Origin: Bdellovibrionota bacterium
Lineage (GTDB): Bacteria > Bdellovibrionota > Bacteriovoracia > Bacteriovoracales > Bacteriovoracaceae
Assembly: GCA_036336775.1 (NCBI GenBank)
Contig: JAYZFM010000042.1
Location: forward strand, 9,945-73,944
Length of the DNA: 64,000 nt
Direction: 5' to 3'
The notes under the pieces are model-generated. The model saw nothing but the letters and a program-made list of their open reading frames with translations. It did not search any database and was not told the origin of the DNA. This document shows, piece by piece, positions 5,348 through 63,958 of this stretch. How positions within the stretch are numbered: position 1 is the stretch's first letter; every line of letters starts with the position of its first letter. Made by a program: the position numbers and the translations under genes.

Positions 5348-7729
5348 ATGCTCAAATTATGGTTAGGATTAGTATTGACCTTATTGCTCACAGGATGTGG
5401 GGATCTCTTCATGAAAAACTCAGAAGATGGGGAAGTGGAATTAGACCAATTCGCTACTTGTGAGTTAGATATCGATGCATTCAGCTATATTTTAGAAAAG
5501 AATATTAAGGGTGAAATCTTATGCCTTAAAGAACAACTTGATCTTTTCATGGATGTTATTCGAACCGATAAGCCAGGTTATGTTTCTAAGGCTGTTTTAA
5601 CTGATTTTTTGATTAATGGACCAGTAGAAGTAGAAGATGATGTCGTCGATATAGTTGAGAACATCTTTGAGCTGAGTTTTCTTATCTTAGGTACAGATCG
5701 AGAATATATAAAAAGAGAAGACGTATATTCACTTATTGATTTTCTTGTTTTCTTTAATGAGCATATTTGGCGTTCTTATAAGTTCTTTAATTCTGAAGAT
5801 GATATCAACTACTCCCGTCAGTTAAGAGAAAGGCAAATTATATTTGATGAGTTTGCTCTCATTGCCGGAAAAATTCGTGAAATCTATCGACCACAGCGTA
5901 ATGGGGTAGATGTGATCGATACTGAAAAGTTTATTTTTAAATTCTTTAAAAAAGAAGGTCAAACGCTAGAGAAGATAAGAAGTTTGATGTTTCTAAAAAG
6001 GCTCTTTCTTGGCGGTCAAATTTGGGAACTCAACCATCTTGAAATTAGTCGAGCTCTTGAAATCTTACCTTACCTTGCTCAAGTCGCTTTTGATGTTTCT
6101 AAAATTGAAAATTATAAATTTGAACAAGAGCAAGAAACCCTGATTAAAGTCTTCATGAAAGATATTGATATCGTCAAAGACACGATGTTTTATACAGAGG
6201 ACTCTTTTGAGTCTGTTTTTACTGTCTATGATGTGATCAATGCAGTTAAGACAATGATACCTGATTTAACAGACGATATTGATGTTGCAAAATATCCTAG
6301 AGAGATTATGCGAGTTAAAGAAATTTTCTTAGGTGCAGGCGGGGAGTTTTTTTCGTCTAAAGAGATTGCTACTTTTTTAAATCTCGGGTCTAGCATTCTA
6401 GATGAAGCGATTACTTTCTATCGGATTTATACATATTATCAAAATGAATTGGATGATACGAAACCAATTTCTCACGATTTTTCTGACTATCCAGTCACAA
6501 ACTCAAGAGAGCTTAGCTATAGAGAGAATTTTGCTCGGATTGTTAGTGGTTATAAGTTTGTGAAAGGAAATAGTATCTCTCCATACTTCACCCATGACTG
6601 GAGAAGAAACGCAAATGCTTATTTTCAAATTGGAGCGCTGGAGCGCCTGATTGGATATGTTTTCGATTTCTATGGAAGTAATAACCCCTCGGCTAGAGGC
6701 GGCTATGATATGACCCTAGATGAGACGGTCAATCTAATAAAAGATTTTAAATGGCTTCTTAGAGACTTTGGGATCATCGTCATTGGGAAGAAAGGTGGTG
6801 GAGAGATCCAAGGGGTTGCTGAAAATTTTGTATTGATGTCGACTCTTTTTCAATTTCAATCTGATGGATGCGGCGATAGTGTTTGTATGGAAGTTCCCGA
6901 GACAATGGAATTTCTTATTGGGATGTTGACGGCGCTTGAAATTAAAGACTTTTTTACAGATACGATGATGAGCCTATGTGCAACAGAATTAGATCAATAT
7001 AATAGAATTGCGCCTACTTGTTTTCGAGATAATTTTCTCAACGTACTTGAGACTTCAATTCCAAGTGATAAAGAGGGCAGGGCCATTTCTGATTTTATGC
7101 CACTTCTGCACAAATACATTAAAGAGTTAACGGCAGATATTGAGCCGAATGAGCCAATTACGAATTCACCAGATTATTTAAAATTTATTACTGAGACAGA
7201 AGCCTTCACTAGAAGTTGTATGTATTATGACGAAGCTGATACCGACGAAGTCTATTTAAAAAGTAACGATGCATTTGCGGTATTTGCGGGTCTTTTAAAT
7301 GTTGAATCCACTCTTTTAAGATTTGATATTAATGGCAATAATAAGCTCGATGGTGTTAATGGTTTTAATGAAGTCATGCATGCCTATTATAACGTCTACG
7401 AAGGAGCGATAAAGGCTCTTGTGGCTCCTGATGGTGGCTTTATGGAGAAGCTAGCTAAGCCAATCTTTAAGTATCTTATAAAAAATGGAACTGTTCCTGA
7501 GACCAATAGATTCAGCAGCATTTGGAAATTTGTTAAATTCCTATTGAAGAGAAATAAAGATGCGGATGCTTCAAGAACGACAGTTGCGACTATTTTAAAA
7601 ACTCTTGGAGAGCAATCAGAAACTGGAAAACTCTATCCTTTTAAGTGTGAGGAATGTCTGCGAGATCCAACAATAGAGTGTGTGCCAGAAGGAAATGACT
7701 GGGAACCAAGAAATACTTCAACTTATTGA
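5348..7729 (+). CDS. large lipoprotein, unknown function
   Basis: 793-aa ORF with lipobox LLLTGC at the N-terminus. I recognised no family motif. Confidence 0.6.
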   Translation: MLKLWLGLVLTLLLTGCGDLFMKNSEDGEVELDQFATCELDIDAFSYILEKNIKGEILCLKEQLDLFMDVIRTDKPGYVSKAVLTDFLINGPVEVEDDVVDIVENIFELSFLILGTDREYIKREDVYSLIDFLVFFNEHIWRSYKFFNSEDDINYSRQLRERQIIFDEFALIAGKIREIYRPQRNGVDVIDTEKFIFKFFKKEGQTLEKIRSLMFLKRLFLGGQIWELNHLEISRALEILPYLAQVAFDVSKIENYKFEQEQETLIKVFMKDIDIVKDTMFYTEDSFESVFTVYDVINAVKTMIPDLTDDIDVAKYPREIMRVKEIFLGAGGEFFSSKEIATFLNLGSSILDEAITFYRIYTYYQNELDDTKPISHDFSDYPVTNSRELSYRENFARIVSGYKFVKGNSISPYFTHDWRRNANAYFQIGALERLIGYVFDFYGSNNPSARGGYDMTLDETVNLIKDFKWLLRDFGIIVIGKKGGGEIQGVAENFVLMSTLFQFQSDGCGDSVCMEVPETMEFLIGMLTALEIKDFFTDTMMSLCATELDQYNRIAPTCFRDNFLNVLETSIPSDKEGRAISDFMPLLHKYIKELTADIEPNEPITNSPDYLKFITETEAFTRSCMYYDEADTDEVYLKSNDAFAVFAGLLNVESTLLRFDINGNNKLDGVNGFNEVMHAYYNVYEGAIKALVAPDGGFMEKLAKPIFKYLIKNGTVPETNRFSSIWKFVKFLLKRNKDADASRTTVATILKTLGEQSETGKLYPFKCEECLRDPTIECVPEGNDWEPRNTSTY

Positions 7730-49831: not shown

Positions 49832-50419
49832 ATGAAAAATTTAATTTGTTCGGCCTTACTTTTATTTATAGTATCAAGTCTGCGTGCTGAGAGCGTGAAA
49901 GTACAAATTTCTAAAGACGTCGTGAGGAAAAATCAATATAGGCTAAGTGGTGTAACCTTTAATGCCAACTCAAATGAAATAAAAGAAAGGATGTTGAAAC
50001 AGCTTGGTGAAGGATACAGCTTTACCGAAGAGTCAGGGACTGTATTTGTTAGCTTTTACTGGGGACCTGAAGTTAAAGGTGAAATTAATGGTGATAGAAT
50101 TATTGGTATGGAAGTTGGCGAAATCATCGGAAACGCTAAAGTAGAAAATAAGGAGTGTATTCTAGAACTCCAGGCCCATAAGTCTGGAGATCCGGAAGTG
50201 GGGGTATTTTTAGGTATAAAAGGATATAAAGTACTGGGTGCTGTCTCTCGTGAAGCTGGAAAGAAATGTCTACCGGAGCTTATTCGTAAACTTTCGTTTA
50301 TGGGAAATATACAAATGAAAGGCGATTTATTAATGGAAGAAACCGTTTCTTATACTTATGAAAAAGCTAGCGATTTAATGGGTAAAGGCAGCCCTGTAAA
50401 TGAAGTAACAGTTGAATAA
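49832..50419 (+). CDS. secreted hypothetical protein
   Basis: Signal peptide MKNLICSALLLFIVSSLRA. Confidence 0.55.
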   Translation: MKNLICSALLLFIVSSLRAESVKVQISKDVVRKNQYRLSGVTFNANSNEIKERMLKQLGEGYSFTEESGTVFVSFYWGPEVKGEINGDRIIGMEVGEIIGNAKVENKECILELQAHKSGDPEVGVFLGIKGYKVLGAVSREAGKKCLPELIRKLSFMGNIQMKGDLLMEETVSYTYEKASDLMGKGSPVNEVTVE

Positions 50420-51795: not shown

Positions 51796-53688
51796 ATGCG
51801 AATAATGCCATTTCTTCTCTTTTTGAGTTTCATATCAGCTAGTGAGGCGAAGCTTAAAATTGCCATAGATTTTGAAGGGGTCCTAGCAAAAAGAGTTCCC
51901 ATTAGATCTCTTAACAACTATCCGGCAAATGATATCGTTAAAGGAAATAATGTTCATATGTATATTCGCCCTGAGACGGCAGATGTTTTAGGAAAAATAT
52001 TAGATAGCGATGAAATCGAGTTGGTGATTGTTAACTCTGATCATCGAATTGATAATCCAGATATCGAAGATTTTATTTCTAACTTCAAAATTAATTCAAA
52101 GTCTTTAAAAGACTTTCCTGTTTCTGTGTATAAAGTGGCAGACCTAGATAAAGGGATCGATCTCTCAAAAATTGAATCAAATCTTTCAAAAATAATCTAT
52201 TTAAAAGATAGCAGTGATAAAGTTCAAATGACTTCTATTGCTAACACTATGACGGTAGGTCCTTTTGATTTTGCTTTTAAAGATTTTAAATCACATGAGT
52301 ATGTGAGAAAGCAAATTGGTTCTAAATTCCCTAATTCCTTTGTTAAAAATCAGCATGAATTTGATCTGAGTCAAAATCGTTGGAGGTTAACTCATAAGTC
52401 ACTGCTGGAAATTTATAAGGAATACCTTCGCGGAAAATCGATTAGAAGTCTTGGAGTAGATAAAATTCAATTTGACCATAACGATTTGAACCAAGCTCCT
52501 AACGAAAGCTTTGCAGTTATTTATAAATGGGATCAAAAAGGCGATGAGTTTGTTTGCTCTCGAGAAAGTCGTGATACCGGAGAAATCTTTTCCGAAGGAG
52601 AGGCAGAGCTTTGTTATGGAAATGAGCAAAAGAATTATTTAAAACTTGCTGATCAAATATCTCAGGAACTTATTGAAGTTAATAAATGTATGGATATTGT
52701 TGTCCCTAAGGTCGCGGACGCTAAGGACCTAAATAAACGCTTAAAAGAATTTTTAGCTGATGTAAAATCCGAGGCCAGTACTCTTGCAGATCCAAGCTAT
52801 ACCGTCTCGGCACTGGTGCGAAATTACAAAGCAGATATGCAAGATATTTTGGATCAATGTAAAAACATCGCTGATGCCAAGGGGATAGCTTTTAGTAATG
52901 ACCATTACTTTCAAAAACTTCTTCGGAAGCCTTATCATCAAATAACACTTGATGAGCTTCTTACACTTTGGTTTCCGCAAGATAGAAAAAAATTAAAAAG
53001 AAATTACTTCGATCACTGCGGAAGAAAAAATGGTAATCCTCACGAGGTGAGAAATAATTATGTAATCGAATCTTGTGCTCCCGATACTCTTTATCGCTGG
53101 AGTGATGATCTATACCTAGGGCTAATGAAAGCTGCGATGCCAGATGGTGGTAATTGGGCGCAAAGACCGAGTGGTGGGCGAACGATATATACTTTTTTAA
53201 GCCCTGCTGTGACTCATGGTTATGGACCTATTGCATTTCGTTTTAAGATTAAACCAGGTGTTAAATTTACCACGACTTCTCAGCATCATTCTAGCTGTGG
53301 TAGCTGGAACCAGACTTCTGCTGATACCGAGATTTATTATAACAATTGGGGTGGGTTGGATGTTGATATCTGTAGTCCTGCCGGAGTGGTTGAGTCTTGG
53401 AGTTATAACACCCGTGAACTTTATGATGAAATCGTTAAAGATTGGCAGTGGAATCAAAGATACTCTCACTCGCAGTCCCTTGTTTATTGGCATGCTCATT
53501 TAAATGAAGATTTGTCTGGTAGAATTGATGGTCATCAATTTGGTGCCGAGGTCATGAGGTCACGCCTGTATGGAATTGCAAAAGCTATTCTCTCTGGTGA
53601 TGGAGGAGTATTTACCCCAAGTGGAGAGGCTATTAAAAAAGATCGTCATTATAAAACAGGTAAAGCCTATTACGCTAATGAAGAATAA
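51796..53688 (+). CDS. secreted hypothetical protein with a C-terminal domain shared with 57243..59495
   Basis: Signal peptide MRIMPFLLFLSFISASEA. The C-terminal motifs LYRWSDD, GRTIYTFLSPAVTHGYGPIAFRFKI and VVESWS parallel the N-terminus of the 750-aa protein. Confidence 0.55.
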   Translation: MRIMPFLLFLSFISASEAKLKIAIDFEGVLAKRVPIRSLNNYPANDIVKGNNVHMYIRPETADVLGKILDSDEIELVIVNSDHRIDNPDIEDFISNFKINSKSLKDFPVSVYKVADLDKGIDLSKIESNLSKIIYLKDSSDKVQMTSIANTMTVGPFDFAFKDFKSHEYVRKQIGSKFPNSFVKNQHEFDLSQNRWRLTHKSLLEIYKEYLRGKSIRSLGVDKIQFDHNDLNQAPNESFAVIYKWDQKGDEFVCSRESRDTGEIFSEGEAELCYGNEQKNYLKLADQISQELIEVNKCMDIVVPKVADAKDLNKRLKEFLADVKSEASTLADPSYTVSALVRNYKADMQDILDQCKNIADAKGIAFSNDHYFQKLLRKPYHQITLDELLTLWFPQDRKKLKRNYFDHCGRKNGNPHEVRNNYVIESCAPDTLYRWSDDLYLGLMKAAMPDGGNWAQRPSGGRTIYTFLSPAVTHGYGPIAFRFKIKPGVKFTTTSQHHSSCGSWNQTSADTEIYYNNWGGLDVDICSPAGVVESWSYNTRELYDEIVKDWQWNQRYSHSQSLVYWHAHLNEDLSGRIDGHQFGAEVMRSRLYGIAKAILSGDGGVFTPSGEAIKKDRHYKTGKAYYANEE

Positions 53689-53953: not shown

Positions 53954-54196
53954 CTATTTTTTTTCAGTATGAGGTCCTTCACAGTCATGGGTTTTTCCCT
54001 CTGATTGGTGATGGTGATGACCATCATGCTCATAGTCTGTGTGGTCTCCGTGCTTTTCAGCTTTGTGGCCACAGTCAGCTTTGTGAGTATGCTCGTGTTT
54101 TTCATGATTCTTGTGAGCATGTTCCTGAGTTTTTGATTCCTCTGCAAAAAGGCTAAATGAAGCCATCAAAAGAAGACTTAATCCAATTGATTTCAT
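53954..54196 (-). CDS. secreted histidine-rich (putative metal-binding) protein
   Basis: Signal peptide MKSIGLSLLLMASFSLFA. The 62-aa mature region contains 16 His (including HHHH) and 2 Cys. Confidence 0.65.
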   Translation of the reverse strand: MKSIGLSLLLMASFSLFAEESKTQEHAHKNHEKHEHTHKADCGHKAEKHGDHTDYEHDGHHHHQSEGKTHDCEGPHTEKK

Positions 54197-54354: not shown

Positions 54355-54750
54355 ATGAAAAGACTACTCATGCTAACTATTGCAATGACTACACTTAATG
54401 TGATGGCGGAAATTCCTGCCGATACCCACCTTGGTTGTCAACTCTACACTGGAGAGCCATTAGTTTTTAAAGACCTTACTAAGTTTAGTATTTCAAAAAA
54501 ACATGAAGATGGAACCCGAACTCTAGAGGCATACTCTGCAGAAACTGAAGATGGTTCGTCACTCTTTGGAGAGTGTTCAGATGATTTTGAAACAGGCGGA
54601 CTAACATGCTCTTATACCAGCTCAAAAGGCAAGGAACTTACTGTCACTTTAGATGACTTAAGAACGAATGAAATTGAAGGGGTCGTTATTTACGATAGAT
54701 TGATGTTTGATCCTGAGCACGAAGTAAGTTGTAATCTTTTAACCTTTTAG
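54355..54750 (+). CDS. small secreted hypothetical protein
   Basis: Signal peptide MKRLLMLTIAMTTLNVMA. Confidence 0.5.
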   Translation: MKRLLMLTIAMTTLNVMAEIPADTHLGCQLYTGEPLVFKDLTKFSISKKHEDGTRTLEAYSAETEDGSSLFGECSDDFETGGLTCSYTSSKGKELTVTLDDLRTNEIEGVVIYDRLMFDPEHEVSCNLLTF

Positions 54751-54759
54751 GATTTTAAA

Positions 54760-56550
54760 ATGAAAAATACCAAACTGAACCTCTTAGTTTTACTTGCCGT
54801 TGCAAGTTCTCAGGCATACTCAACGGAAGCCTTAATTGAGGATGTTGTTGTTCCTGAAGAAGTGGTAGCGCCAGTTGAAATCGTAGAGCCTAGCTTTGAT
54901 AGAATCAATTTAGACGAGGCAGGGAAGTTTCAATTCATTAATAATAGAAATTTTATCAAACATAATATGGTAGAGTTTGAAGGTGTTGAGTACAACTTTT
55001 CGAACTTATCTAGTTTGGCCTATTCTCCTGTTGAGGATCTCTATTACGGAGTCATCGACAGAACGGATCATCAAGATGAAACATCTGCGCAAATTTTTAA
55101 ATTTAAAATAAATACGAAAGTAGAAGGTTATAAAAAATCTTATGATGTGGAAATCAAGGCAGCGATGAGCCTTAAGGATGCTCAAGGACAAGAGCTAGGT
55201 TTTCTTGATGTGGAAGCAGTTGAGATAGACAAAAACGGAGACATTCTAATTGTTGCCGAGTCTACTTCTAATCCGACGATTGGTTATACAGATTCAAGTA
55301 AAATTATCCGCTTTGATAAAGAGGCTAAGATTATCTCTGTTGAATCAATTGCCGAGAGTATTGAGAATAAAACTCTCATTCATAACCCTAATAATATTCC
55401 TGAGCCAGGAGATTTAGAGCTACTAGATCTACCTCGTAGACCTAGAAAACCAGCATATCCTAGGTATCACTCTAAGGTTCCTCAAGCGAGCACTCCTGAA
55501 TACAATGAGCCTGAGTTTCAAACTCCAGCTAACTTAGTCAAAGTGCCTAAAGAAGAGTATGAGATTGATGCTGGCGATTGGATCGCCCAGAAAGTATATA
55601 ATATCTTTATTGGCTGGTGGAAAGGCTGGGTAGATTATAGAACTTTAACCAATCATGGCGATATTGAACGCGCGAAAAAAATAAACGCAGATATTATGGC
55701 CCAAGCGAAAATTGACCATGCTGCAGACATTAGAAATGCCAAGGTTGCACATCAAAACGAAGTTGCCACTTGGAAAGTTGAGCGTGAGAAATATCTTGCT
55801 TGGGAAGAAGAAAATATTAAGCCGATCGATATAAAGCATGATCAAGATATGCAGGCCTATAATAAAGAATTCAATACTATTTCGGCAAAAAATAGTTTGA
55901 TTGAAAACGCCTGGCGTGAAGCAAATAGAAAGTGGAATGCTCTTGAAAGAAGACATTATGGGCAAGACGACGCAAATCTTGGAGTTGAATCCTTAGCGAT
56001 CGAACCAGAAACAGAAAGAGTTATCACAGTTACAGAAGGTGCCCTCTCTCAAGATAATGAAGAATTTCTTCGTGTGATAGTGCATGAAGCTGGAAATACC
56101 ACTCAGTACGCTTATGAACTTTCTCATGAGAAATCAGTTGTTTCTGATATCCATGCCCTAGGTAATGGTAAAGTATTAGTGTTAGAAAAGCGTTTTGATT
56201 CAAGAGCGAGAAAGGTTTTTGCTGATCTTTTTATGATTGATATTAACCATTCAGTAGCTCTACGAGATGATAATACTTGGAAAGGTGATTATTCTGAGAT
56301 CGCGGTTAAAAAAGTTAAACTTTTAAATTTAAATTCAGTAGATGAACACCTTACTTATTCAAAAAGTGAGAAGAACTCGACTAGGGGAGCGACCCAGATT
56401 GATAACCTAGAAGGTTTAACTATTGGACCGGTTCTAGAAGATGGAAAAAGACTTATGGTGATTGCAAGTGATGCCAATAGACAGTTGCGTACGAATCAAA
56501 TCACACAGTTTCTTTTCTTTGCTGTCGATGCGAGTGTTTTCGAGGAATAA
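54760..56550 (+). CDS. secreted phytase-like esterase (PF13449-like) propeller protein with a large insertion
   Basis: Signal peptide. LSSLAYSPVEDLYYGVIDR near the N-terminus and IDNLEGLTIGPVLEDGKRLMVIASDANRQ near the C-terminus. A Pro-rich plus coiled-coil insert lies between them. It is a paralogue of 61442..63958. Confidence 0.5.
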   Translation: MKNTKLNLLVLLAVASSQAYSTEALIEDVVVPEEVVAPVEIVEPSFDRINLDEAGKFQFINNRNFIKHNMVEFEGVEYNFSNLSSLAYSPVEDLYYGVIDRTDHQDETSAQIFKFKINTKVEGYKKSYDVEIKAAMSLKDAQGQELGFLDVEAVEIDKNGDILIVAESTSNPTIGYTDSSKIIRFDKEAKIISVESIAESIENKTLIHNPNNIPEPGDLELLDLPRRPRKPAYPRYHSKVPQASTPEYNEPEFQTPANLVKVPKEEYEIDAGDWIAQKVYNIFIGWWKGWVDYRTLTNHGDIERAKKINADIMAQAKIDHAADIRNAKVAHQNEVATWKVEREKYLAWEEENIKPIDIKHDQDMQAYNKEFNTISAKNSLIENAWREANRKWNALERRHYGQDDANLGVESLAIEPETERVITVTEGALSQDNEEFLRVIVHEAGNTTQYAYELSHEKSVVSDIHALGNGKVLVLEKRFDSRARKVFADLFMIDINHSVALRDDNTWKGDYSEIAVKKVKLLNLNSVDEHLTYSKSEKNSTRGATQIDNLEGLTIGPVLEDGKRLMVIASDANRQLRTNQITQFLFFAVDASVFEE

Positions 56551-56554
56551 GAGT

Positions 56555-57238
56555 ATGAAGAGAATTTCCTTAGTTGGTTTGCTACTTGTTATGAGTTCAA
56601 TGAGTCATGCGGGGGCACCCAAAATAATGACAGAGGGCATTTCTTCTGAAGAAATAAAATTATCAAAAGCTAGTAAGCTTGCTCCAAGAGGGAGCGCAAC
56701 TATAACGGATTCTGGAAAGCTTAAAAACCAAAATATCAAAGCGATTATTCATGCTGCTACTGGTAGCATGAATCGCTCTGGTAAAAGTTTCGATCCTTCG
56801 TTAGAAAGTGTAGAGCTTTCGGTAAAGAACTCAGTCAAACTCGCTCAAAAAAATAGCTTCACTTCAATTGCAGTGCCTTTTTTAGGAAGCGGAATTTTTA
56901 TTTCCCGTATCGGGACAACAAAAAAGAAATTAGCTGCAACTATTATTCAGGCCATGAGTGATGCGGCAAATGACATCAAGCCGGTATTTGTCGCCTATGG
57001 TGATTCAGACTATGAACTGGTAAAAGCTGTTAAGGCAAGATTAAACACTTCGAAGGTATCAATTGTTAAAGGCTCTATCACGGATTATAGCGTACATAAT
57101 GCGGCGGTGATTGTGAATGCCGCGAATACTGAATTGGTATTTGGTGGTGGCCTTTCAGGTGTTATCGCTCGGGCCACCGGTGCTTCTGATGAAATTGATA
57201 AGGAGAACAAAGCTATTTTACAAAGCTTTGCTCCCTAA
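56555..57238 (+). CDS. secreted macrodomain protein with circularly permuted motif order
   Basis: From ORF 56462..57238, with the start moved to ATG 56555 (MKRISLVGLLLVMSSMSHA). Macro motifs appear in the order IKAIIHAATG, SIAVPFLGSGIF, then the C-terminal IVKGSITDYSVHNAAVIVNAANTELVFGGGLSGVIARATG. Confidence 0.75.
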   Translation: MKRISLVGLLLVMSSMSHAGAPKIMTEGISSEEIKLSKASKLAPRGSATITDSGKLKNQNIKAIIHAATGSMNRSGKSFDPSLESVELSVKNSVKLAQKNSFTSIAVPFLGSGIFISRIGTTKKKLAATIIQAMSDAANDIKPVFVAYGDSDYELVKAVKARLNTSKVSIVKGSITDYSVHNAAVIVNAANTELVFGGGLSGVIARATGASDEIDKENKAILQSFAP

Positions 57239-57242
57239 GTTT

Positions 57243-59495
57243 TTATAGTTTACAGCCTGCAGCTTTCTCGTTTGAAACAATTTTATCGATTAGCGCCTTT
57301 TGAGCAGGAGCTACAATCTTTTTAAGGTCTCTATCAAATTTGTCTAACACAACTGCAACCCCACAAAGATCTGACTGAGTTCTATTTCGTCCTGCATTTT
57401 GGATATGGCGGTTATAAACAAAGTTTCTCCAGTCATTCTTTTCTTGATTTGCAATTTGAAACTCATTTGTCTGCATGTACTGGTCGAAATCATTAGAAGT
57501 CAGGCTATCAAGTACGATTTGTAATAGAACTTTTGCACCATTATTTCTTTGTTTAACGGCTTTAAATATAAGTGCGTGGATAAAAGAACCATCAATTGCT
57601 GTCTCGACCATCTCTTCTAATTGAGCGTCAAAGTTTGCATCTCCACTACCATAATGATCAACATACTTATCAGTAGGGTGAACATCATACATAAGTCCGT
57701 CTAGTTCACTAAAAAATGAGGCATTTTGTAAAAGAGCGTAACCGTAAGATTTAAGTAATGTTTTATCCATATTAAAATATAGGTATAAGAAAGTCGCTTC
57801 AGCCTCTTGTTTTGCTGCCAATCTTCCCGCATCGTCATTTGCTGACTCATGCATTTTGAAGTAGTACTCAAAAAATGCTGATAGAGTTAGTCTAAAAGTG
57901 TTAGTGCTTGGATTAAGCGCATGATTTCTTTCTTCGATTGAACGATTGAAAAGTAGGCTAAAATAATGCTCAGTTGTAATCATTGAAGGAAGTTTAGTTT
58001 TTCCAGCAGTAAAATCACCTAGCATCTGATAGGTTGGAACTTTATTCATTGGAAGCTCTAGCGCTTTGATAAGCCCTGCGTACTTTGGAAAATCTGCTAC
58101 AGGGATAGCTGCTTTTATATGATCTACTACTTGCCCCACGGCCATTGGATCTAGTCCCTGAAAGTGAGATTTTGCTCGGTTGTGAAGAACTCTAACTGTT
58201 GCTGGAGTAATAGCTAATAATTGATTGTTGAGCTTTGGATCATATAAAGACATGACAAACGCTGGGGAGTTAATCAAGTAGTTCTCGATCGTCTCATCGA
58301 TATAAGGTGCAATAATTAAAGATTCGTGTTGTGCTTGAACGTATTTATTAAAGACTTTTAGCATTTCCAGTTTATTTTGATTAGAAAGCTTAGAGTAAGT
58401 CAGCATGTCCGGGAGATTTGAAAATAGGGTCGAGATAATCGTCGCATTTTTAAAATCGTATGAGTTTAGCGAGCTAAAAATATTCTGAGACTTAAAGATT
58501 GCGATCCAAGCTTTAGAGATGTCTTTCGCTGAAAGTGTTCCATTTGAATATTTATCAAGAGCGATAAGAGAACTAATAACGTTGGTTTTTTCAAGTTTTT
58601 TGTCTTTAAGATTCTCTAGAGCTTGGTCTGCAAAGATAGCTTCCATCTTTGGATCACCAGAAACAACCGTATCGTAATCATTGAATTCTAATTGATTATC
58701 TTTAAGCGCTCTTAGAAGCTGCTCTTTATAAAGTTTAGTTCTAAATTTATCAGTTAAATCTGCGCCGTTATATTTTACCATTCTTGCGAGGACACTCATT
58801 GGTGGTATCTTTGCCACTTCAGTTGGGTCTTTTAAGATATCCATTAAGTTCATTCTAGCCTTATGATTGATAAAGACTAGCTCTCCTAAACGTTTTCTTT
58901 CTGCAAAGATCGCTGTGAGCGTATTGTCTGCATGAGTTTGGAACGCTTGATCTGAAATTGATTTATTTAAATTGAGATCGGATTCTAATTGTTGAGAGTT
59001 GGCACTCCATTGAGCGATCGCCTGTGGGTCTCTGATAACATACCACGCGTAATTTCCAACACCACCTCCGCTATAGAATTTAATATCCCAAGGTCTAGCA
59101 TCACATTGAGCCTGAGTCGGGTAGTAGCTACCATCATGACCGCAATACTTTTGGCCAGTGGTATCGTCTAAAAGGACAATATCATCAACTAAGTCAATTC
59201 TAAGAACTCTATCACCATAATTATAACTTCCTGTCGGAGACTTTGCACAGTAGAGACCTGGTCCGGCCATTGCTCCTTTAGAAGTACCTGGAGTGGTATA
59301 GAAAGTGATGTCGCCATTATTTTGCTGAGCGTACTGATATTTATGAGTAAGATACCCCGGTCCCTTTTCATCAAGCCAATGATAACAATGGCTAATAGGG
59401 ATATGTGGAGAGTTTTTGGTGTTTTGATCGGCAGCTAAAGCTCTGTAAGCAAATAGGGCGAGTAAACCTATTATGATCCCATTTGAGTATTTCAT
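57243..59495 (-). CDS. large secreted hypothetical protein
   Basis: Signal peptide MKYSNGIIIGLLALFAYRALA. The N-terminal domain of about 130 aa carries CYHWLDE, GPGLYCAKSPTGSYNYGDRVLRIDL and AIAQWS. Confidence 0.6.
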   Translation of the reverse strand: MKYSNGIIIGLLALFAYRALAADQNTKNSPHIPISHCYHWLDEKGPGYLTHKYQYAQQNNGDITFYTTPGTSKGAMAGPGLYCAKSPTGSYNYGDRVLRIDLVDDIVLLDDTTGQKYCGHDGSYYPTQAQCDARPWDIKFYSGGGVGNYAWYVIRDPQAIAQWSANSQQLESDLNLNKSISDQAFQTHADNTLTAIFAERKRLGELVFINHKARMNLMDILKDPTEVAKIPPMSVLARMVKYNGADLTDKFRTKLYKEQLLRALKDNQLEFNDYDTVVSGDPKMEAIFADQALENLKDKKLEKTNVISSLIALDKYSNGTLSAKDISKAWIAIFKSQNIFSSLNSYDFKNATIISTLFSNLPDMLTYSKLSNQNKLEMLKVFNKYVQAQHESLIIAPYIDETIENYLINSPAFVMSLYDPKLNNQLLAITPATVRVLHNRAKSHFQGLDPMAVGQVVDHIKAAIPVADFPKYAGLIKALELPMNKVPTYQMLGDFTAGKTKLPSMITTEHYFSLLFNRSIEERNHALNPSTNTFRLTLSAFFEYYFKMHESANDDAGRLAAKQEAEATFLYLYFNMDKTLLKSYGYALLQNASFFSELDGLMYDVHPTDKYVDHYGSGDANFDAQLEEMVETAIDGSFIHALIFKAVKQRNNGAKVLLQIVLDSLTSNDFDQYMQTNEFQIANQEKNDWRNFVYNRHIQNAGRNRTQSDLCGVAVVLDKFDRDLKKIVAPAQKALIDKIVSNEKAAGCKL

Positions 59496-59504
59496 CTGTT
59501 CCCC

Positions 59505-61442
59505 TTAATCATCATAACCATAGCGATATCCCATTAGATAGGAAGTATCACTATGAACGCGAATGATGATGTTCTTTACATTATTTATGTTGTTGTATGT
59601 TGTAATTACGCCTTGAGGTGAAACATTTTCACGATTAATAAGCTGAATTTGCTTACCAGAATTTGTTTCAACAAAAATAGAAATCTTTGATCCCCCAAGA
59701 GATCCAATTCCACCGTCACGGTTTCTAACGCCATCTGGTTTGGTATCGCCAATGGCAAGGTCAATCGCACGTACGTTTCTTCCATGAGTTGGAATGACTA
59801 GCTTGTGAGCACCTCTCCCTCTTTGTGAAAGTACAAATGCGCCCGGAAATTTTCCACCATAACGGCTTCCTCCACCGCCATACACGCGACCTTGCATGGT
59901 GATTGGGTCCCCAAGAGATGTACGGTTATAAGTGTAGCTATGCTCCTCATAATGATCAGCAAGAGGTGGAACTAATTTTATTTGCACACCCGCTATATAA
60001 ACTGGGTCATCACCAAGAACTTCTAGTTTAATTAGATTTCCCTTTAGCAGAGAAGACTCTTTTTTATCTGTTGCGATTGAGTGGTGTCCCTTGAGTGGCC
60101 ATTCATAAAGGTTATCAAACTCAGGAGATTTTTTGATTTCAGCAAATTTGGACCTTTTATCACTGCTGACATGTCCACCCCAGCCGCGCCAAGCATTGTT
60201 ATAGCTGTGATTTACTGAATGCACTTGCACTGAAGTGTATGCAGGCCAGTCATCATAGGTTTTAACACCTGTTGCTGGGTTGTAGCTCATACTCCCTCTC
60301 TGATCACGAGGATTTTGTCTATGGGCAAGAATAATACTTGAGATGGCCTTAGAGTCTACATGATCTGGCAGTACTAGATATACTGTTTGATTTGGGAGAA
60401 GTCTTAATTCTTTTGAAAAATCAAATGCTACTTCTAATTCCGCATTAAGAGTAGGTTGATAATAAACTTCTTGGATATCTTGGACTAAGTACTTATGGTC
60501 TTTTTTTATAATTTCATTTACAGCATCAAATTTAGGATCAGTATTTAAAAGATGTGAGGCGATGGCGGTTTGGCGAACTGGTACTAAAGGAATATAGCTA
60601 TCTGTGGCAGCACTATCGTATAGCTTAATTTCATTAAATAAATCTGTGATATCAGACTTCGTTTTGATTGGGAAGTTTGCCGCAATTTTCGCCATATCTA
60701 TATTATCAGCTTTTTTAGACAGAATTCCTGCGAGGGATAATTGGTTAATAGAAATGGAAGCTTGGGTCGCGCAATCAAAAAATTGCATATCTTGATTGCA
60801 AACGGCACCAAGTTTATGTTTCAACGCAATAATCGATTTTCCTACGGCATGCAGGGAGTATTTCTTTTCATTGTGAAATAAACTGCCTATCGCACTTGCC
60901 GGTAGGAGTCCGTAGTATTTAATCTCTCCACTTTTTAATTGATAGGCATCAGGATTAGGGTTCATGAAGGCCACAATTTCATCATGACTATTAAGGCTGG
61001 TATCTGCTGAAAAAATTTCATCACGATCAGCTTTAGTCTCAAGAAAATCTTCAAGGTTATTTTGACTATGAAGTTCTTTTAAAAAGTCTTGGTAAAATGC
61101 AATTGCCTGAGCTTTGGCATCAACAGTATCCGGAATGTCTTTTATGCTTTTGATATTGTCGTAAATTCCCCTGTCTTTTAAAACACTTCTATACTCAGAG
61201 TAGAGGTTGGAATCAGTATTATCATCTTTTATTTTATCAACCATTGCAGCTGCAAACTTGGACTCAATATAGATTTCTCTTTGATTTAACACTGCATCTA
61301 CAAAAGCATTAACGGGATCAGCGTACTGAGAGATCTCTACGAAATGAGGTGTTCCTACAGAGGGAGCACCTAGTATTTGACCAGGCGCTTGTCCTGCAAG
61401 CGCGCTAGTTGAAAGTAAAAGGCCAAGAATTGCGGATTTCAT
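59505..61442 (-). CDS. large secreted hypothetical protein
   Basis: Signal peptide MKSAILGLLLSTSALAG. The C-terminal part is Gly-rich. It lies 9 nt upstream of the next gene. Confidence 0.6.
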   Translation of the reverse strand: MKSAILGLLLSTSALAGQAPGQILGAPSVGTPHFVEISQYADPVNAFVDAVLNQREIYIESKFAAAMVDKIKDDNTDSNLYSEYRSVLKDRGIYDNIKSIKDIPDTVDAKAQAIAFYQDFLKELHSQNNLEDFLETKADRDEIFSADTSLNSHDEIVAFMNPNPDAYQLKSGEIKYYGLLPASAIGSLFHNEKKYSLHAVGKSIIALKHKLGAVCNQDMQFFDCATQASISINQLSLAGILSKKADNIDMAKIAANFPIKTKSDITDLFNEIKLYDSAATDSYIPLVPVRQTAIASHLLNTDPKFDAVNEIIKKDHKYLVQDIQEVYYQPTLNAELEVAFDFSKELRLLPNQTVYLVLPDHVDSKAISSIILAHRQNPRDQRGSMSYNPATGVKTYDDWPAYTSVQVHSVNHSYNNAWRGWGGHVSSDKRSKFAEIKKSPEFDNLYEWPLKGHHSIATDKKESSLLKGNLIKLEVLGDDPVYIAGVQIKLVPPLADHYEEHSYTYNRTSLGDPITMQGRVYGGGGSRYGGKFPGAFVLSQRGRGAHKLVIPTHGRNVRAIDLAIGDTKPDGVRNRDGGIGSLGGSKISIFVETNSGKQIQLINRENVSPQGVITTYNNINNVKNIIIRVHSDTSYLMGYRYGYDD

Positions 61443-63958
61443 TACAGCTTTTCTCCGTCCTCGATAAGTTTGTCGATTTTCACTTCAAAAAGCATGATCA
61501 TTGATCTTTGACCGGTACTAAAATTATTGTCTGCTGTCAGAACAAGAGATTGTTTACCATTGGGAAGAACCGGCCCTAATGCCATACCTTCAAGGTTATC
61601 TAATCTTCTAAACCCTGGAGACATTTGGTTTTTGATGTCATCCAGATCTAGGATTAATTTCTTTTCAGTATTTTTAGCATTTTCAATCTTATCATCGCTC
61701 ATACCAAGCATATTTTCTGCATTAGCAAGGTTCACTAGAAAAATTCTTGAAGTAAGTCGTCTAGCACTATTATCCCAACTTCTCTCTAAAGTAAGTAGGA
61801 TATGTTCATTAAGTGCAAGAACTTCTACTAAACCATTATCTGGTTCATCCTCTAACTCGTAGAAATATTGTCCTTGTTCTACAAATTTCCCGCCCACAGA
61901 TTGGTACTTAACAAGTCTTACTCTATCAACGGTCTTTTTACTTCCGCGAAAAAAGCTTTTGGTAAAGCGCTGGTCTTGTTGAAGAGCCGCTTCGTTTCCA
62001 GTGAAAAGAAATTGTTTATCCGGAGTTAGAGAAAGAGACTCAAAACTCTTATTATTTTGTAATCCTGACTGATAGTAGCTATAAGTACATTTTTCTTGAA
62101 CTGGTTTCACTGGTTGAGCATCCGCTACGATAGCACCTTGCTGAGCTCCTCCTTGTTGAGGTCCGCCTTGCTGAGGAGTACCCTGCTGTCCTCGGCTTGA
62201 TCTTGAGCTTCTACCACTTCTTATCGGTTTACATTTTTTCTCAGTAATCGTTCTTGGTCTGAAGGCGATATCGATAGGGATAGTATCAATCTCTTTTCCC
62301 TTTGCCGAAAATCTAGTTAAAAAGTCACTTCCTCCGAGGTCATCCATTTCAGAAGAAACGATCATATCTCCGTTGGCTAGAAAATCAAAACCTTCAGGGT
62401 CCATATTAAAGCGAGTCGCATTGCCTGATCTTCTGTGACTCCCACTACCTCTATTAGTTTGAGGCTTAGACTTATCAAACTTAATCATCTTGTCTTCAGT
62501 AATTTTTAATTCGCCTTCTTTATCAAAAGAGTAGTTGTATACATAAATTCGAGGATCCCCGTTAAACCCTCTATCATCACTTAGAAGGTAAGCTTTTTTC
62601 GTTTCCTCATTAAATCTTAAAGCCGAAAGACCTCCCACTCGAATATTTCCGTTTTTGAAATTGGTTTCCGAGTGAATATTGTAATCACGGTAAAGCCTTA
62701 GGTAAGAATTATATTTTGAGTGTTTTTGGTATTTTAAATCACCCTTACAGTCATTAAATACATAATAGAAAGCATTTGCATCAGACTGATTGATACGTCC
62801 TCGGACATGTTTGTTTTTCTCATCTAGCTCATTTTGTCTTAATCCAAAATAGTCTAATAGACCCGAGTTAAGTCCAGACTTTACACAAGTCACGTATTCT
62901 GGGTTTCTTAGGTTTTGCGAGGTGGATACACTAGTACATAATTGATATGCGGTGCTTTTCTGAATTCCATATTCTACAGTGGTTTCTGCACATTTTCTAA
63001 AGCCCCAGCTATTGATATGATCAAGTTTGTCTTGGTACTCAGTACAGAAATTAAGAACTTTTTCCATCCCGAGAGCTTCTTTATTATCTTTAACACAATC
63101 TTGAAATTCTGGTTTGTAGAAGATCACTCTAAAATCCATCTCAAGACATTTGTCTTGCATAAGCTCAATCCCATATTCTGGCGCATTTTGCTCGACACAG
63201 CCTTTAGTGTACTCACTATTTAAATCGGTGCAAAGTTTGAACGCGGCCATTGGATCAGCCTTATGAGCTAACATACTTTCCATACAGCCTGAGAATTCAT
63301 CAGCAGCAACCTTCTGTTTTACGTTATAGTCGTTACACTCAGTCCAAGCGTCTTGGGAGCGAACATATTTTCGAGCATCATTCCAACATTGGACCTTGTC
63401 TTGGCCATTAAAATTGGTACAAATATTGATTTTATCATAATCACTAAGACCTTGAGACGGAGATAGCTGCTTAATACATTTGTCAAAAGCATAAGTGGAA
63501 ACTTCTTTTCCAGAATTAGGATCAAGACAGATTCTTGGACTAAGAGTTTGACTGATACCTTCGATCTTATCTACACATCTTGGTACTTCATTCGAAGTAA
63601 GGTAGGTGTTCTTCCAACCCTCAGCACAATCTCCCGCAATGCCAGAGTCATATTTTTTATAAGGCTTTACTTTTTCTAGACACTGAAAGTAGTCGTCCCA
63701 TTTAACATAATTGATTTCTCTAGAATTCCAACCCGTTCTTTTACAAACCCAGTCATCATTTTCATAGCCGGCAGCTTTGAATTTTTTCTCACACATATTT
63801 AATTTAGGTGCTGGCGCTACATATGGTTGTTGTGAAGGGCAAAGATAGAGAGGTCCTGTATAGGACTGACTAACTCTATTTCCATTTTGGTCACAATCGT
63901 ATTTAGCATAGGCACTAGTAGTTACAAATAATAGCATTAAAACATTTGTTAGTTTCAT
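61442..63958 (-). CDS. large secreted protein: Cys-rich helical repeats plus a split phytase-like esterase domain
   Basis: Signal peptide MKLTNVLMLLFVTTSAYA. The N-terminal 400 aa or so are repeated Cys-containing modules. GGLSALRFNEETKKAYLLSDDRG and LDNLEGMALGPVLPNGKQSLVLTADNNF are separated by a low-complexity stretch, RSSRSSRGQQGTPQQGGPQQGGAQQGA. Confidence 0.55.
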   Translation of the reverse strand: MKLTNVLMLLFVTTSAYAKYDCDQNGNRVSQSYTGPLYLCPSQQPYVAPAPKLNMCEKKFKAAGYENDDWVCKRTGWNSREINYVKWDDYFQCLEKVKPYKKYDSGIAGDCAEGWKNTYLTSNEVPRCVDKIEGISQTLSPRICLDPNSGKEVSTYAFDKCIKQLSPSQGLSDYDKINICTNFNGQDKVQCWNDARKYVRSQDAWTECNDYNVKQKVAADEFSGCMESMLAHKADPMAAFKLCTDLNSEYTKGCVEQNAPEYGIELMQDKCLEMDFRVIFYKPEFQDCVKDNKEALGMEKVLNFCTEYQDKLDHINSWGFRKCAETTVEYGIQKSTAYQLCTSVSTSQNLRNPEYVTCVKSGLNSGLLDYFGLRQNELDEKNKHVRGRINQSDANAFYYVFNDCKGDLKYQKHSKYNSYLRLYRDYNIHSETNFKNGNIRVGGLSALRFNEETKKAYLLSDDRGFNGDPRIYVYNYSFDKEGELKITEDKMIKFDKSKPQTNRGSGSHRRSGNATRFNMDPEGFDFLANGDMIVSSEMDDLGGSDFLTRFSAKGKEIDTIPIDIAFRPRTITEKKCKPIRSGRSSRSSRGQQGTPQQGGPQQGGAQQGAIVADAQPVKPVQEKCTYSYYQSGLQNNKSFESLSLTPDKQFLFTGNEAALQQDQRFTKSFFRGSKKTVDRVRLVKYQSVGGKFVEQGQYFYELEDEPDNGLVEVLALNEHILLTLERSWDNSARRLTSRIFLVNLANAENMLGMSDDKIENAKNTEKKLILDLDDIKNQMSPGFRRLDNLEGMALGPVLPNGKQSLVLTADNNFSTGQRSMIMLFEVKIDKLIEDGEKL

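Follow-up and report, generated by a model that had tools for sequence, protein, structure and literature searches.

ADP-ribosylation, generally treated as intracellular chemistry, is read and erased mainly by macrodomains. In macrodomains of the viral and PARP14 types without the catalytic aspartate, the conserved asparagine and the glycine-rich loop are enough for hydrolytic activity. Circularly permuted macrodomains with crystal structures have been described from Dictyostelium APL and from plants (Gunn et al. 2016, PMC5087659; PDB 5LW0). This APL type, which includes Dictyostelium APL, the rice protein Q10MW4 (PDB 5LW0) and Arabidopsis, is the sole permuted macrodomain that we found described; the fold is kept, the canonical termini are linked internally, and ADP-ribose binding is retained. 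Bacterial macrodomains that leave their producer include the translocated Legionella effectors MavL (PMC10951314) and Larg1, the latter paired with the ADP-ribosyltransferase (ART) Lart1/Ceg3 (PMC9191684). As far as these sources describe them, the Legionella effectors reverse ADP-ribosylation, sometimes paired with an ART of the same bacterium, whereas their delivery relies on the Dot/Icm type IV system and not on a Sec signal peptide, their chain order is canonical and their targets belong to a eukaryotic host.

The window analysed here, a stretch of 64,000 nucleotides, comes from a predator lineage of the Bacteriovoracaceae type. On its plus strand, at 56555..57238, it encodes a 227-aa pre-protein composed of a signal peptide and a circularly permuted macrodomain. 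A Shine-Dalgarno-like GAGGA (56542..56546, plus strand), read from the sequence, lies 8 nt upstream of the ATG at 56555, which follows the stop codon of the upstream gene (56548-56550) by 4 nt; the gene's own stop codon occupies 57236-57238. Comparison with the 96%-identical copy at locus L001, from the same species, revealed 18 synonymous and 9 non-synonymous codon differences, indicating that the gene is under purifying selection. We consider the most probable reading (about 0.75) to be that its product is a Sec-exported, permuted, MacroD/YmdB-like macrodomain, from a bacterial family founded by one permutation event, which binds and probably processes an ADP-ribose-type ligand. The permuted chain of this single-domain protein would have its new termini between helix alpha2 and strand beta4 and its old termini bridged by a linker that is short and variable (about aa 156-168), while retaining the three-dimensional fold and both ligand loops (NAAN...FGGG and GxGIF). 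The permutation event, independent of that behind the eukaryotic APL-type macrodomain, would have founded a discrete bacterial family, maintained vertically, which acquired signal peptides within Bdellovibrionota. Exported to the predator periplasm, and possibly on to the prey, the protein would there bind an ADP-ribose-containing ligand and probably remove or process it, for example by de-mono-ADP-ribosylation or hydrolysis of an ADP-ribose ester. The chemistry would be substrate-assisted and carried by Asn191 and the glycine loop, as in macrodomains without the MacroD aspartate, with the invariant Ser201 at the aspartate position.

The Pfam Macro profile (PF01661) matches the protein with E=2.8e-15 and 56.7 bits, the cut-off being 22, and is split over two stretches. 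In a phmmer comparison with E. coli YmdB (1SPV/5CB3), residues 166-210 align with YmdB 3-44 and residues 41-155 with YmdB 58-166. These swapped blocks bear out the preliminary description, which had read the macrodomain motifs in the order 2-3-4-1. The linear order of the secondary-structure elements is accordingly non-canonical, running from beta4 to alpha5 and then through beta2-beta3-alpha1-alpha2. When the sequence was re-ordered as 164-227 followed by 26-163, the Pfam match became a single stretch covering positions 1-108 of the 118 in the profile at 58 bits, and the re-ordered sequence also aligned with Oceanobacillus MacroD in one stretch (4-195 to 32-197). Given that canonical re-ordering restores one full-length Macro match and that the order recurs in related proteins, the protein is, as had been proposed, a genuine circular permutation and not a truncation, and it is no product of misassembly.

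Residues 42-163 (56678..57043, plus strand) correspond to the canonical C-terminal two-thirds, aligned with YmdB 58-166, and contain, according to the model, beta4, beta5, alpha3, beta6 with loop 2 (G111-S-G-I-F115), alpha4, beta7 and alpha5. Residues 166-225 (57050..57229, plus strand) align with YmdB 3-44 and provide the canonical N-terminal third, with beta2 (GSITD), beta3 (VIVNAAN), loop 1 (F196-GGG-L-S201), alpha1 and alpha2. Residues 164-165 (57044..57049, plus strand) form the centre of the linker between the canonical C- and N-termini. This linker is variable: four of the nine substitutions relative to L001 fall within aa 156-164, and L021 and P0023 carry long insertions at this point. 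The N-terminal segment (EEIKLSKAS) had been equated with the segment that normally follows motif 1, an assignment that we do not retain; it is variable in the family, and that segment is best accounted for by the C-terminal helix 211-225, which is conserved across the family with the pattern I-D/N-x-E-A-x-x-x-I. As it is this helix that comes after motif 1 in the canonical order, the cut is placed behind it, immediately ahead of LAPRGSATIT.

AF2 run without templates returned a confident model (pLDDT 93.4, pTM 0.89) with the element order beta4-beta5-alpha3-beta6-alpha4-beta7-alpha5-beta2-beta3-alpha1-alpha2. All 15 Foldseek matches in the PDB at E<=0.001 are structures with a macrodomain or with a scaffold derived from one, among them TTHA0132, YmdB, macroH2A and its SPX fusion carriers, and designed serine hydrolases, so that the predicted structure does form a macro fold, three-layered (alpha/beta/alpha) around a mixed sheet. 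Matches to macrodomains reached a probability of 1.00, a target-normalised TM of 0.55-0.59 and an rmsd of 2.3-2.6 A over about 115 columns, as is expected of a sequential aligner on a permuted target. That the protein belongs to a permuted macrodomain family is, in our judgement, close to certain.

The topology had been called novel, a description that stands for the site of the cut and not for permutation as such, given the macrodomains of Dictyostelium APL and plants (PMC5087659). With the native-order profile, rice 5LW0 matches from beta6 to alpha1 only (profile 116-225 to chain 39-151), whereas with the profile re-ordered as 83-227 followed by 40-82 it is colinear across the termini of the bacterial protein (20-181 to chain 35-196). 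Judged from these profile coordinates, beta4-beta5 follow alpha1-alpha2 in 5LW0 as in canonical macrodomains, with new termini in the beta5/alpha3/beta6 region, while those of the bacterial protein lie between alpha2 and beta4. The bacterial break point is thus, by alignment, different from the APL-type one, and the bacterial permutation therefore looks independent. 5LW0 was absent from the best 50 Foldseek matches. Unlike the bacterial protein, APL-type macrodomains are eukaryotic, nuclear, PAR-binding and embedded in multi-domain DNA-repair proteins. The bacterial clade would be the second case in which the macro fold was circularly permuted in nature, independently of the first, and its new permutation site is informative about which connections the fold tolerates and may be of use in the engineering of macrodomain sensors.

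A word-index search retrieved 58 relatives, and the database search for the same permuted architecture that had been called for found it in about 156 protein clusters (50% identity), with representatives at E<=1e-30. Among the best 150 of the 156 representatives, 146 align with the permuted profile as a single colinear stretch, and the four exceptions include two tandem-copy proteins (P0101 with 3 copies and P0102 with 2). The protein therefore belongs to a real, conserved bacterial family that is permuted at a new site. The clusters are concentrated in Bdellovibrionota, and the 43 genomic loci carrying the gene derive mostly from Bacteriovoracaceae, Halobacteriovoraceae, Bdellovibrio and Oligoflexia. 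Family members are fused to NUDIX, ADP-ribosylglycohydrolase, alpha/beta-hydrolase and deubiquitinase (UCH) domains, which ties the family to ADP-ribose biology. No NCBIfam model is dedicated to it; all NCBIfam matches were split over two stretches and far below the cut-offs.

The best matches in both sequence and structure are macrodomains of the MacroD/YmdB type (YmdB 1SPV/5CB3, Oceanobacillus MacroD, Af1521, Thermus TTHA0132 and PARP14 macro 1), with which the protein shares NAAN, the glycine-rich loop 1, the loop 2 aromatic residue (F115, equivalent to YmdB Y126) and the alpha/beta/alpha fold. It differs from them in its permuted order, in a 3-residue insertion with a near-invariant H181, in an invariant E193, in its signal peptide, as MacroD/YmdB-type proteins are cytoplasmic, and in having S174, S201 and A205 in place of YmdB D11, D35 and H39. 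Across 52 family sequences, N188, N191, E193, G197, G199, S201 and F115 are invariant and G198 nearly so (51/52). The MacroD motif N-x6-GG[VLI]-D is hence incomplete: N191 and G197-199 are present, and the position of the catalytic aspartate (YmdB D35) is occupied by S201, a serine in 52/52 members. The MacroD histidine (YmdB H39) is replaced by Ala or Gly throughout the family. The canonical adenine-contact aspartate (YmdB D11, at the end of beta2, GDIT) aligns with S174, which is Ser in 44/52 and Asp in 7/52 members, and D177, three residues further on, is conserved in 43/52. In loop 2, compared with the MacroD pattern G-[VIA]-[YF]-G, G113-I114-F115 are conserved and the trailing glycine gives way to Leu, Ala or Ile. 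To go by these residues, the ligand or the chemistry may differ from that of MacroD. Coronavirus Mac1, alphavirus nsP3 macro and PARP14 macro 1 resemble the protein in having the conserved asparagine and glycine loop together with a residue that is not acidic where YmdB has D35; these hydrolases without the aspartate are weaker matches and, unlike the bacterial protein, are canonical in order and cytoplasmic.

An ADP-ribose-type ligand is likely. Catalysis is an even bet: because the MacroD acidic residues are serines (S174, S201), we infer a hydrolase activity and do not assert it. The alternative that fares best is an exported, non-catalytic reader or sponge, which would sequester or sense an ADP-ribose-derived nucleotide, such as free ADP-ribose, a deaminated form of it or a prey signalling nucleotide, with no hydrolysis. 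Besides the two serines and the loss of H39, it draws on the established fact that many macrodomains, including APL and macroH2A1.1, are pure binders, and on a secreted adenosine-deaminase-like gene located directly after the macrodomain gene in three loci (L044, L045 and L048). Against it, Asn191 and the glycine-rich loop are invariant, a combination that is enough for hydrolysis in the viral and PARP14-type proteins, and the family invariants E193, H181 and S201 surround the distal-ribose loop in what looks like an active site. We regard a pure binder as possible, with perhaps half the weight of our preferred reading or less, in which the ligand is also processed.

Upstream of the gene and co-directional with it are a 131-aa gene with a signal-peptide-like N-terminus and no family match (54355..54750, plus strand), whose homologue lies beside the macrodomain gene only in L001, and a 596-aa gene with a signal peptide and a Phytase-like domain (PF13449, E=1.5e-34; 54760..56550, plus strand), whose adjacency is likewise kept only in L001. 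The three genes had been presented as a secreted run; their common direction, gaps of 9 and 4 nt and signal-peptide-like starts agree with this, but the arrangement is conserved only within the same species (L001), and the conserved neighbours are located downstream on the other strand. A conserved operon of the macrodomain gene and the two upstream genes was thus rejected, as the adjacency is found only in the near-identical L001. Promoter and terminator scanning of 53.6-57.8 kb gave nothing exceeding shuffled expectation. A Pfam scan of 96 flanking ORFs in the 43 loci detected no recurrent ART, sirtuin or NADase neighbour and nothing recurrent beyond clade-specific synteny, and no ART, sirtuin or NADase was present among the 25 of 63 families listed by a family scan of the 51 other ORFs in the window.

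The conserved convergent neighbour, p750 (57243..59495, minus strand), encodes a secreted 750-aa protein whose mobile N-terminal domain (aa 25-290) gives weak ART-like structural matches. It is followed in the conserved block by genes for a secreted 645-aa protein (59505..61442, minus strand), with homologues after p750 in L003 and L006 and similar-size genes at the same position in L044, L046 and L048, and for a secreted, Phytase-like 838-aa protein (PF13449, E=1.5e-52; 61442..63958, minus strand). Phytase-like genes also end the block in L044 and L046, and homologues of the 838-aa gene occur in L002, L003 and L006. A p750-family gene adjoins the macrodomain gene in L003, L006, L021 and L046 and is one gene off in L002, L044, L045 and L048. 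A proposed paralogy between the p750 N-terminal domain and the product of p630 (51796-53688) was discarded after an HMM search that gave no match.

These neighbours suggest a refinement of the main reading more than an alternative to it, namely that the macrodomain is the eraser or immunity partner of p750. The p750 N-terminal domain would be an ART or NADase of the H-Y-[D/E] type delivered to prey, and the macrodomain would undo or restrain its effects within the envelope of the producer itself, as in Lart1/Larg1 or DarT/DarG. In its favour, p750-family genes lie at or near the macrodomain gene in the window, in L001 and in the loci just listed, and in L021 the latter sits inside a same-strand array of genes with the p750 N-terminal domain, with overlapping boundaries. 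The domain is modular, its AF2 model has a pLDDT of 90, and its best BFVD matches are phage PARP-catalytic, PolyVal-ART and ART models (E=3.9e-3 with probability 0.98, then 0.088, 0.13 and 0.17), although these alignments have an rmsd of 8-11 A. Its invariant residues, taken from sequence only, are H36/H39, G78-x-G80-x-Y82, D105 and D137, and other p750 loci adjoin an adenosine-deaminase gene or a PnuC NMN-transporter gene. Several observations argue against such a partnership. Foldseek against the PDB was not significant (best E=1, a pertussis-like toxin A subunit being among the insignificant matches), and a sequence-level ART assignment was rejected, as 41 members gave no Pfam match even at E<=1 and no PDB sequence match. 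Moreover, the genes are convergent and not operonic in most loci, no macrodomain gene was found near any of four further p750-family loci (L049-L052), and the macrodomain family is present without p750 in other phyla. We therefore hold the partnership to be unlikely. Somewhat less likely still is a broader extracytoplasmic NAD+/ADP-ribose system in Bdellovibrionota, in which the macrodomain would be the eraser and the p750 N-terminal domain a writer or NAD+ cleaver from a hitherto unrecognised, highly divergent ART-like family, joined in some genomes by the secreted adenosine deaminase. It would ADP-ribosylate components of the prey or harvest its NAD+, with the products processed outside the predator cytoplasm and the serines S174 and S201 reflecting a non-canonical ligand or linkage. 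The linkage to p750, a large, unannotated secreted family with ART-like structural hints, does offer a testable route to the substrate.

The signal peptide, as originally noted, occupies aa 1-19 (56555..56611, plus strand; MKR / ISLVGLLLVM / SSMSHA), with predicted Sec/SPase-I cleavage before G20. The call was made by eye, and the N-terminus is classically tripartite, with a basic n-region, an h-region within the 7-15 residues expected and small residues at -3/-1 (S-H-A|G); aa 1-20 have a low pLDDT (61) in the AF2 model. Hydrophobic N-termini of equivalent type occur in most Bdellovibrionota homologues, including multi-domain members. Signal peptides are absent from members in Flavobacteriia, Cytophagia, Rhodobacterales, Geminicoccaceae and Acidobacteriota, and because many members in other phyla lack one, the permutation is not linked to export. 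Their absence there would also fit a cytoplasmic protein whose hydrophobic N-terminus is not functional as a signal peptide or serves as a membrane anchor. We find this improbable, since the n-, h- and c-regions are canonical, the h-region of about 10-12 residues is too short for a stable transmembrane helix, equivalent signals persist across Bdellovibrionota orthologues at 40-56% identity although the signal sequence itself is not conserved, and all nine genes adjacent to the macrodomain gene carry similar, signal-peptide-like N-termini. Export by Sec is therefore probable, and the periplasm or a site beyond it would be the destination. To our knowledge, neither NAD+ nor ADP-ribosylated substrates are known from the periplasm of bacteria, which tells against the main reading. 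Our search for literature on secreted or periplasmic macrodomains and on Bdellovibrio macrodomains, whose incomplete coverage does not prove absence, found no relevant paper. For the processing of ADP-ribose outside the cytoplasm, be it in the periplasm, in the prey compartment or in the medium, the clade provides a concrete candidate.

An artefact (misassembly, frameshift or a pseudogene fusing two macrodomain fragments, for which a mis-cut of tandem arrays like those of P0101 and P0102 is conceivable in principle) or membership of the APL type carries negligible weight, given the same single-domain order in about 156 clusters from independent assemblies (NCBI, JGI, ENA and Logan), the intact ORF with its Shine-Dalgarno sequence under purifying selection, the confident AF2 model and the cut site differing from that of 5LW0. 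We also considered whether the AP at both ends (N-terminal ...KLAP|RGSA and C-terminal ...SFAP, as two copies of alpha2) is a relic of tandem duplication; this was rejected, as the N-terminal segment is variable over 52 members and only the closest relatives show the resemblance. In public databases the family is annotated as 'O-acetyl-ADP-ribose deacetylase (regulator of RNase III)', a name that gives no hint of the permuted chain or of the missing MacroD acidic residues.

The macro gene is read on the forward strand from an ATG at 56555 to a stop at 57236–57238 and encodes 227 aa. The upstream gene stops 4 nt before this ATG, and a GAGGA motif read from the sequence lies 8 nt before it. A mechanical ORF list takes the ORF back to a TTG at 56462; this longer form would run into the upstream gene and place the signal peptide internally, which makes the start at 56555 used in the preliminary description the sensible one. 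The product matched Pfam Macro in two stretches (E=2.8e-15, 56.7 bits, cut-off 22). Residues 166–210 aligned with residues 3–44 of Escherichia coli YmdB (VQGDIT...VNAAN...GGGGVDGAIHRAAG) and residues 41–155 with YmdB 58–166; the two blocks stand in reversed order, so that the motifs are swapped in just the way first described. When the sequence was re-ordered as 164–227 plus 26–163, a single stretch was obtained against Pfam Macro (profile 1–108 of 118) and against Oceanobacillus MacroD (residues 4–195 with 32–197). The blocks aligned with YmdB are separated by 33 residues in the re-ordered sequence and by 14 in YmdB itself. At the sequence level, the protein is thus a clean circular permutation, as had been proposed. 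The accompanying claim that its N-terminus corresponds to the segment following motif 1 did not hold: the helix canonically found after motif 1 is kept at the C-terminus (aa 211–225), with the family-conserved pattern I-[DN]-x-E-A-x-x-x-I, and the 'EEIKLSKAS' helix forms an extension at the N-terminus that is variable.

An assembly rearrangement was raised earlier as a possible source of the apparent permutation, but the same architecture recurs in the databases. A word index returned 58 homologues, about 50 of them colinear with the query at 38–56% identity. An exhaustive profile search covering 1.84 billion representatives gave 156 at E<=1e-30 against the permuted profile and, among the 150 best of these, 146 matched it in a single colinear stretch; two of the other four are tandem-copy proteins. 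Residues P44, G46, H66, P108, F115, H181, N188, N191, E193, F196, G197–199 and S201 are invariant or nearly so in the family. Comparison with a 96%-identical copy from a Bacteriovoracaceae MAG shows 18 synonymous and 9 non-synonymous codon differences, the latter in the signal peptide, at the surface and in the 156–164 linker. The permuted order is thus a family trait and not an artefact. NCBIfam holds no model for the family, which source annotation labels generically as O-acetyl-ADP-ribose deacetylase. Two members, each with a signal peptide, carry three (P0101, 884 aa) or two (P0102, 513 aa) tandem permuted macrodomains, and such arrays provide a substrate for permutation, or its reversal, via duplication and truncation.

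The structure prediction suggested earlier gave a confident model (AlphaFold2 with a 52-sequence family alignment and without templates; mean pLDDT 93.4, pTM 0.89), with low scores in the signal peptide only. After a short N-terminal helix, the predicted order is beta4 (47–52), beta5 (63–68), alpha3 (83–99), beta6 (104–108), alpha4 (123–137), beta7 (142–147), alpha5 (150–163), beta2 (169–172), beta3 (185–190), alpha1 (199–208) and alpha2 (211–225). Each of the 15 Foldseek PDB matches at E<=0.001 has a macrodomain or a scaffold derived from one: TTHA0132, YmdB, designed serine hydrolases and macroH2A, the last also as a carrier for crystallising SPX domains. Probability was 1.00, and the next match was PARP14 macro 1 (E=2.6e-3). 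The alignments span only about 115 columns (2.3–2.6 Å, target-normalised TM 0.55–0.59), as expected of a sequential aligner on a permuted target.

The only paper on permuted macrodomains retrieved by full-text search (Gunn et al. 2016, PMC5087659) describes a circularly permuted macrodomain in Dictyostelium APL, Arabidopsis and rice Q10MW4, with crystal structures, a complex with ADP-ribose and binding of PAR. The novel topology proposed in the preliminary description therefore holds only in part: circular permutation of this fold is known, but the cut site differs. Against the native-order profile, the rice structure 5LW0 aligned from beta6 to alpha1 only (profile 116–225 with chain 39–151); against a profile rebuilt through the termini of the macro protein (83–227 plus 40–82), it aligned in a single stretch (20–181 with chain 35–196). 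Beta4–beta5 therefore follow alpha1–alpha2 in the eukaryotic type, as in canonical macrodomains, and its termini have moved to the beta5/alpha3/beta6 region, whereas those of the macro protein lie between alpha2 and beta4. The differing break points argue for independent permutation events. In the searchable literature, we found no description of the cut site, bacterial distribution or signal peptide of this family. The macro protein is real, conserved and predicted to be exported, and belongs to a clade of bacterial macrodomains permuted at a new site.

Ligand-site residues were mapped through the YmdB alignment and counted in 52 family sequences. The counterparts of YmdB N22 and N25 (N188, N191) and of Y126 (F115) are invariant, as are G197 and G199 of the Gly loop F196-G197-G198-G199, with F196 and G198 in 51 of 52. 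The MacroD catalytic residues are altered: D35, the catalytic Asp, is replaced by an invariant Ser (S201) and H39 by Ala or Gly (A205). The adenine-contacting D11 corresponds to S174 (Ser in 44, Asp in 7 of 52), three residues ahead of a conserved D177. Macrodomains lacking the Asp (coronavirus Mac1, alphavirus nsP3, PARP14 macro 1) still hydrolyse mono-ADP-ribose by means of their Asn and Gly loop, so that a hydrolase activity is plausible here without being implied. The probability of binding to a ligand of the ADP-ribose type is put at about 0.8, and the odds of putative catalysis are considered even. Domain fusions, among them those with NUDIX (P0183) and with ADP-ribosylglycohydrolase (P0210, E=4e-56), link the family to ADP-ribose biology, and an ADP-ribose-related function is inferred for the macro protein. 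An alpha/beta-hydrolase (PF00561/PF12697) recurs N-terminal to the permuted domain (P0105, P0115, P0128, P0130, P0131, P0144, P0177 and L018 4870–6636), in many cases behind a signal peptide, and may form with it an exported two-step esterase/ADP-ribose module. P0163, apparently from an Oligoflexia MAG, combines RCC1, macro and UCH deubiquitinase domains. It starts with the N-myristoylation-like motif MGN[KG]xxS, as do P0032, P0048, P0050 and P0118, which have coiled-coil N-terminal regions; these eukaryote-like effector architectures suggest that some lineages direct the reversal of ADP-ribosylation at a host.

Genome matches were mainly to Bacteriovoracaceae, Halobacteriovoraceae, Bdellovibrio and Oligoflexia, with others in Lacinutrix, Psychroserpens, Cyclobacterium, Saprospiraceae, Roseovarius/Roseobacter, Geminicoccaceae, Acidobacteriota and Planctomycetota. 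Of 148 full-length sequences, at least 72 have a signal peptide predicted by a strict hydrophobicity rule, and about 15 more resemble such cases by eye. Nearly all Bdellovibrionota members open with a basic n-region followed by a hydrophobic h-region, and in most members from other phyla the chain begins only a few residues ahead of the domain, without a signal. This points to export as something added in particular lineages to a domain that was already permuted, rather than a correlate of permutation.

The secreted three-gene run described earlier holds in this window, where a 131-aa protein with no assigned function and a 596-aa Phytase-like protein, both with predicted signal peptides, are encoded upstream in the same direction with spacings of 9 and 4 nt; the pair adjoins the macro gene only within the same species. 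The block recurring in other Bacteriovoracaceae and Halobacteriovoraceae lies downstream and convergent, on the reverse strand: p750 (57243–59495), p645 (59505–61442) and an 838-aa Phytase-like protein (61442–63958), all with predicted signal peptides. At three loci, a secreted adenosine/AMP-deaminase-like gene directly follows the macro gene, ahead of p750 (L044 8742–10199, L045 3828–5285, L048 8631–10079; signal peptides in the translated L044 and L048 copies), and another adjoins a p750-family gene (L050 9202–10632); the four products have 476–485 aa. These neighbours hint at extracytoplasmic adenine-nucleotide processing. In a Bdellovibrio MAG (L021), a signal-peptide macro gene is embedded between genes for the p750 N-terminal domain, all on one strand and with gene ends that overlap. 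Ankyrin-repeat proteins are encoded beside the permuted macro gene at two Bdellovibrionota loci (L046 6634–7857, L040 1827–4682).

The 750-aa p750 family matches neither Pfam nor NCBIfam models. The N-terminal domain of p750 (aa 25–290) is a mobile module found at the N-termini of 666–1309-aa proteins at about 38–53% identity, with invariant H36, C37, H39, W40, G78, G80, Y82, C83, D105 and D137 (including GxGxY82), and has no match in Pfam or PDB sequences. With its confident AF2 model (pLDDT 90), a PDB structure search gave nothing significant (best E=1); among predicted viral structures, the top matches were phage PARP-catalytic, PolyVal-ART and ART proteins (best E=3.9e-3, probability 0.98). 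These indications are mixed, and the domain may represent a novel and divergent family of the ADP-ribosyltransferase or NADase-like kind. Of four further p750-family loci looked up, none had a macro gene nearby; one had the adjacent adenosine-deaminase gene of L050, and in one (L051) a PnuC-type NMN/nicotinamide-riboside transporter gene (6329–6895), another NAD-related neighbour, lies immediately upstream of the p750-family gene. The pairing of p750 as a candidate ART-like writer with a macro eraser is unlikely on balance, a lead and not a finding.

In the window, at least 10 consecutive ORFs between 49832 and 63958 have signal-peptide-like N-termini, most without a family match (starts at 49832, 50510, 51796, 53701, 53954(-), 54355, 54760, 56555, 57243(-), 59505(-) and 61442(-)). 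The region looks like a secretome island beside housekeeping genes (TatC, Hsp90, GS-III). Within it, 53954–54196 on the reverse strand encodes an extremely His-rich secreted protein of 80 aa with Cys pairs (HAHKNHEKHEHTHKADCGHKAEKHGDHTDYEHDGHHHHQSEG...), probably a periplasmic metal-binding peptide.
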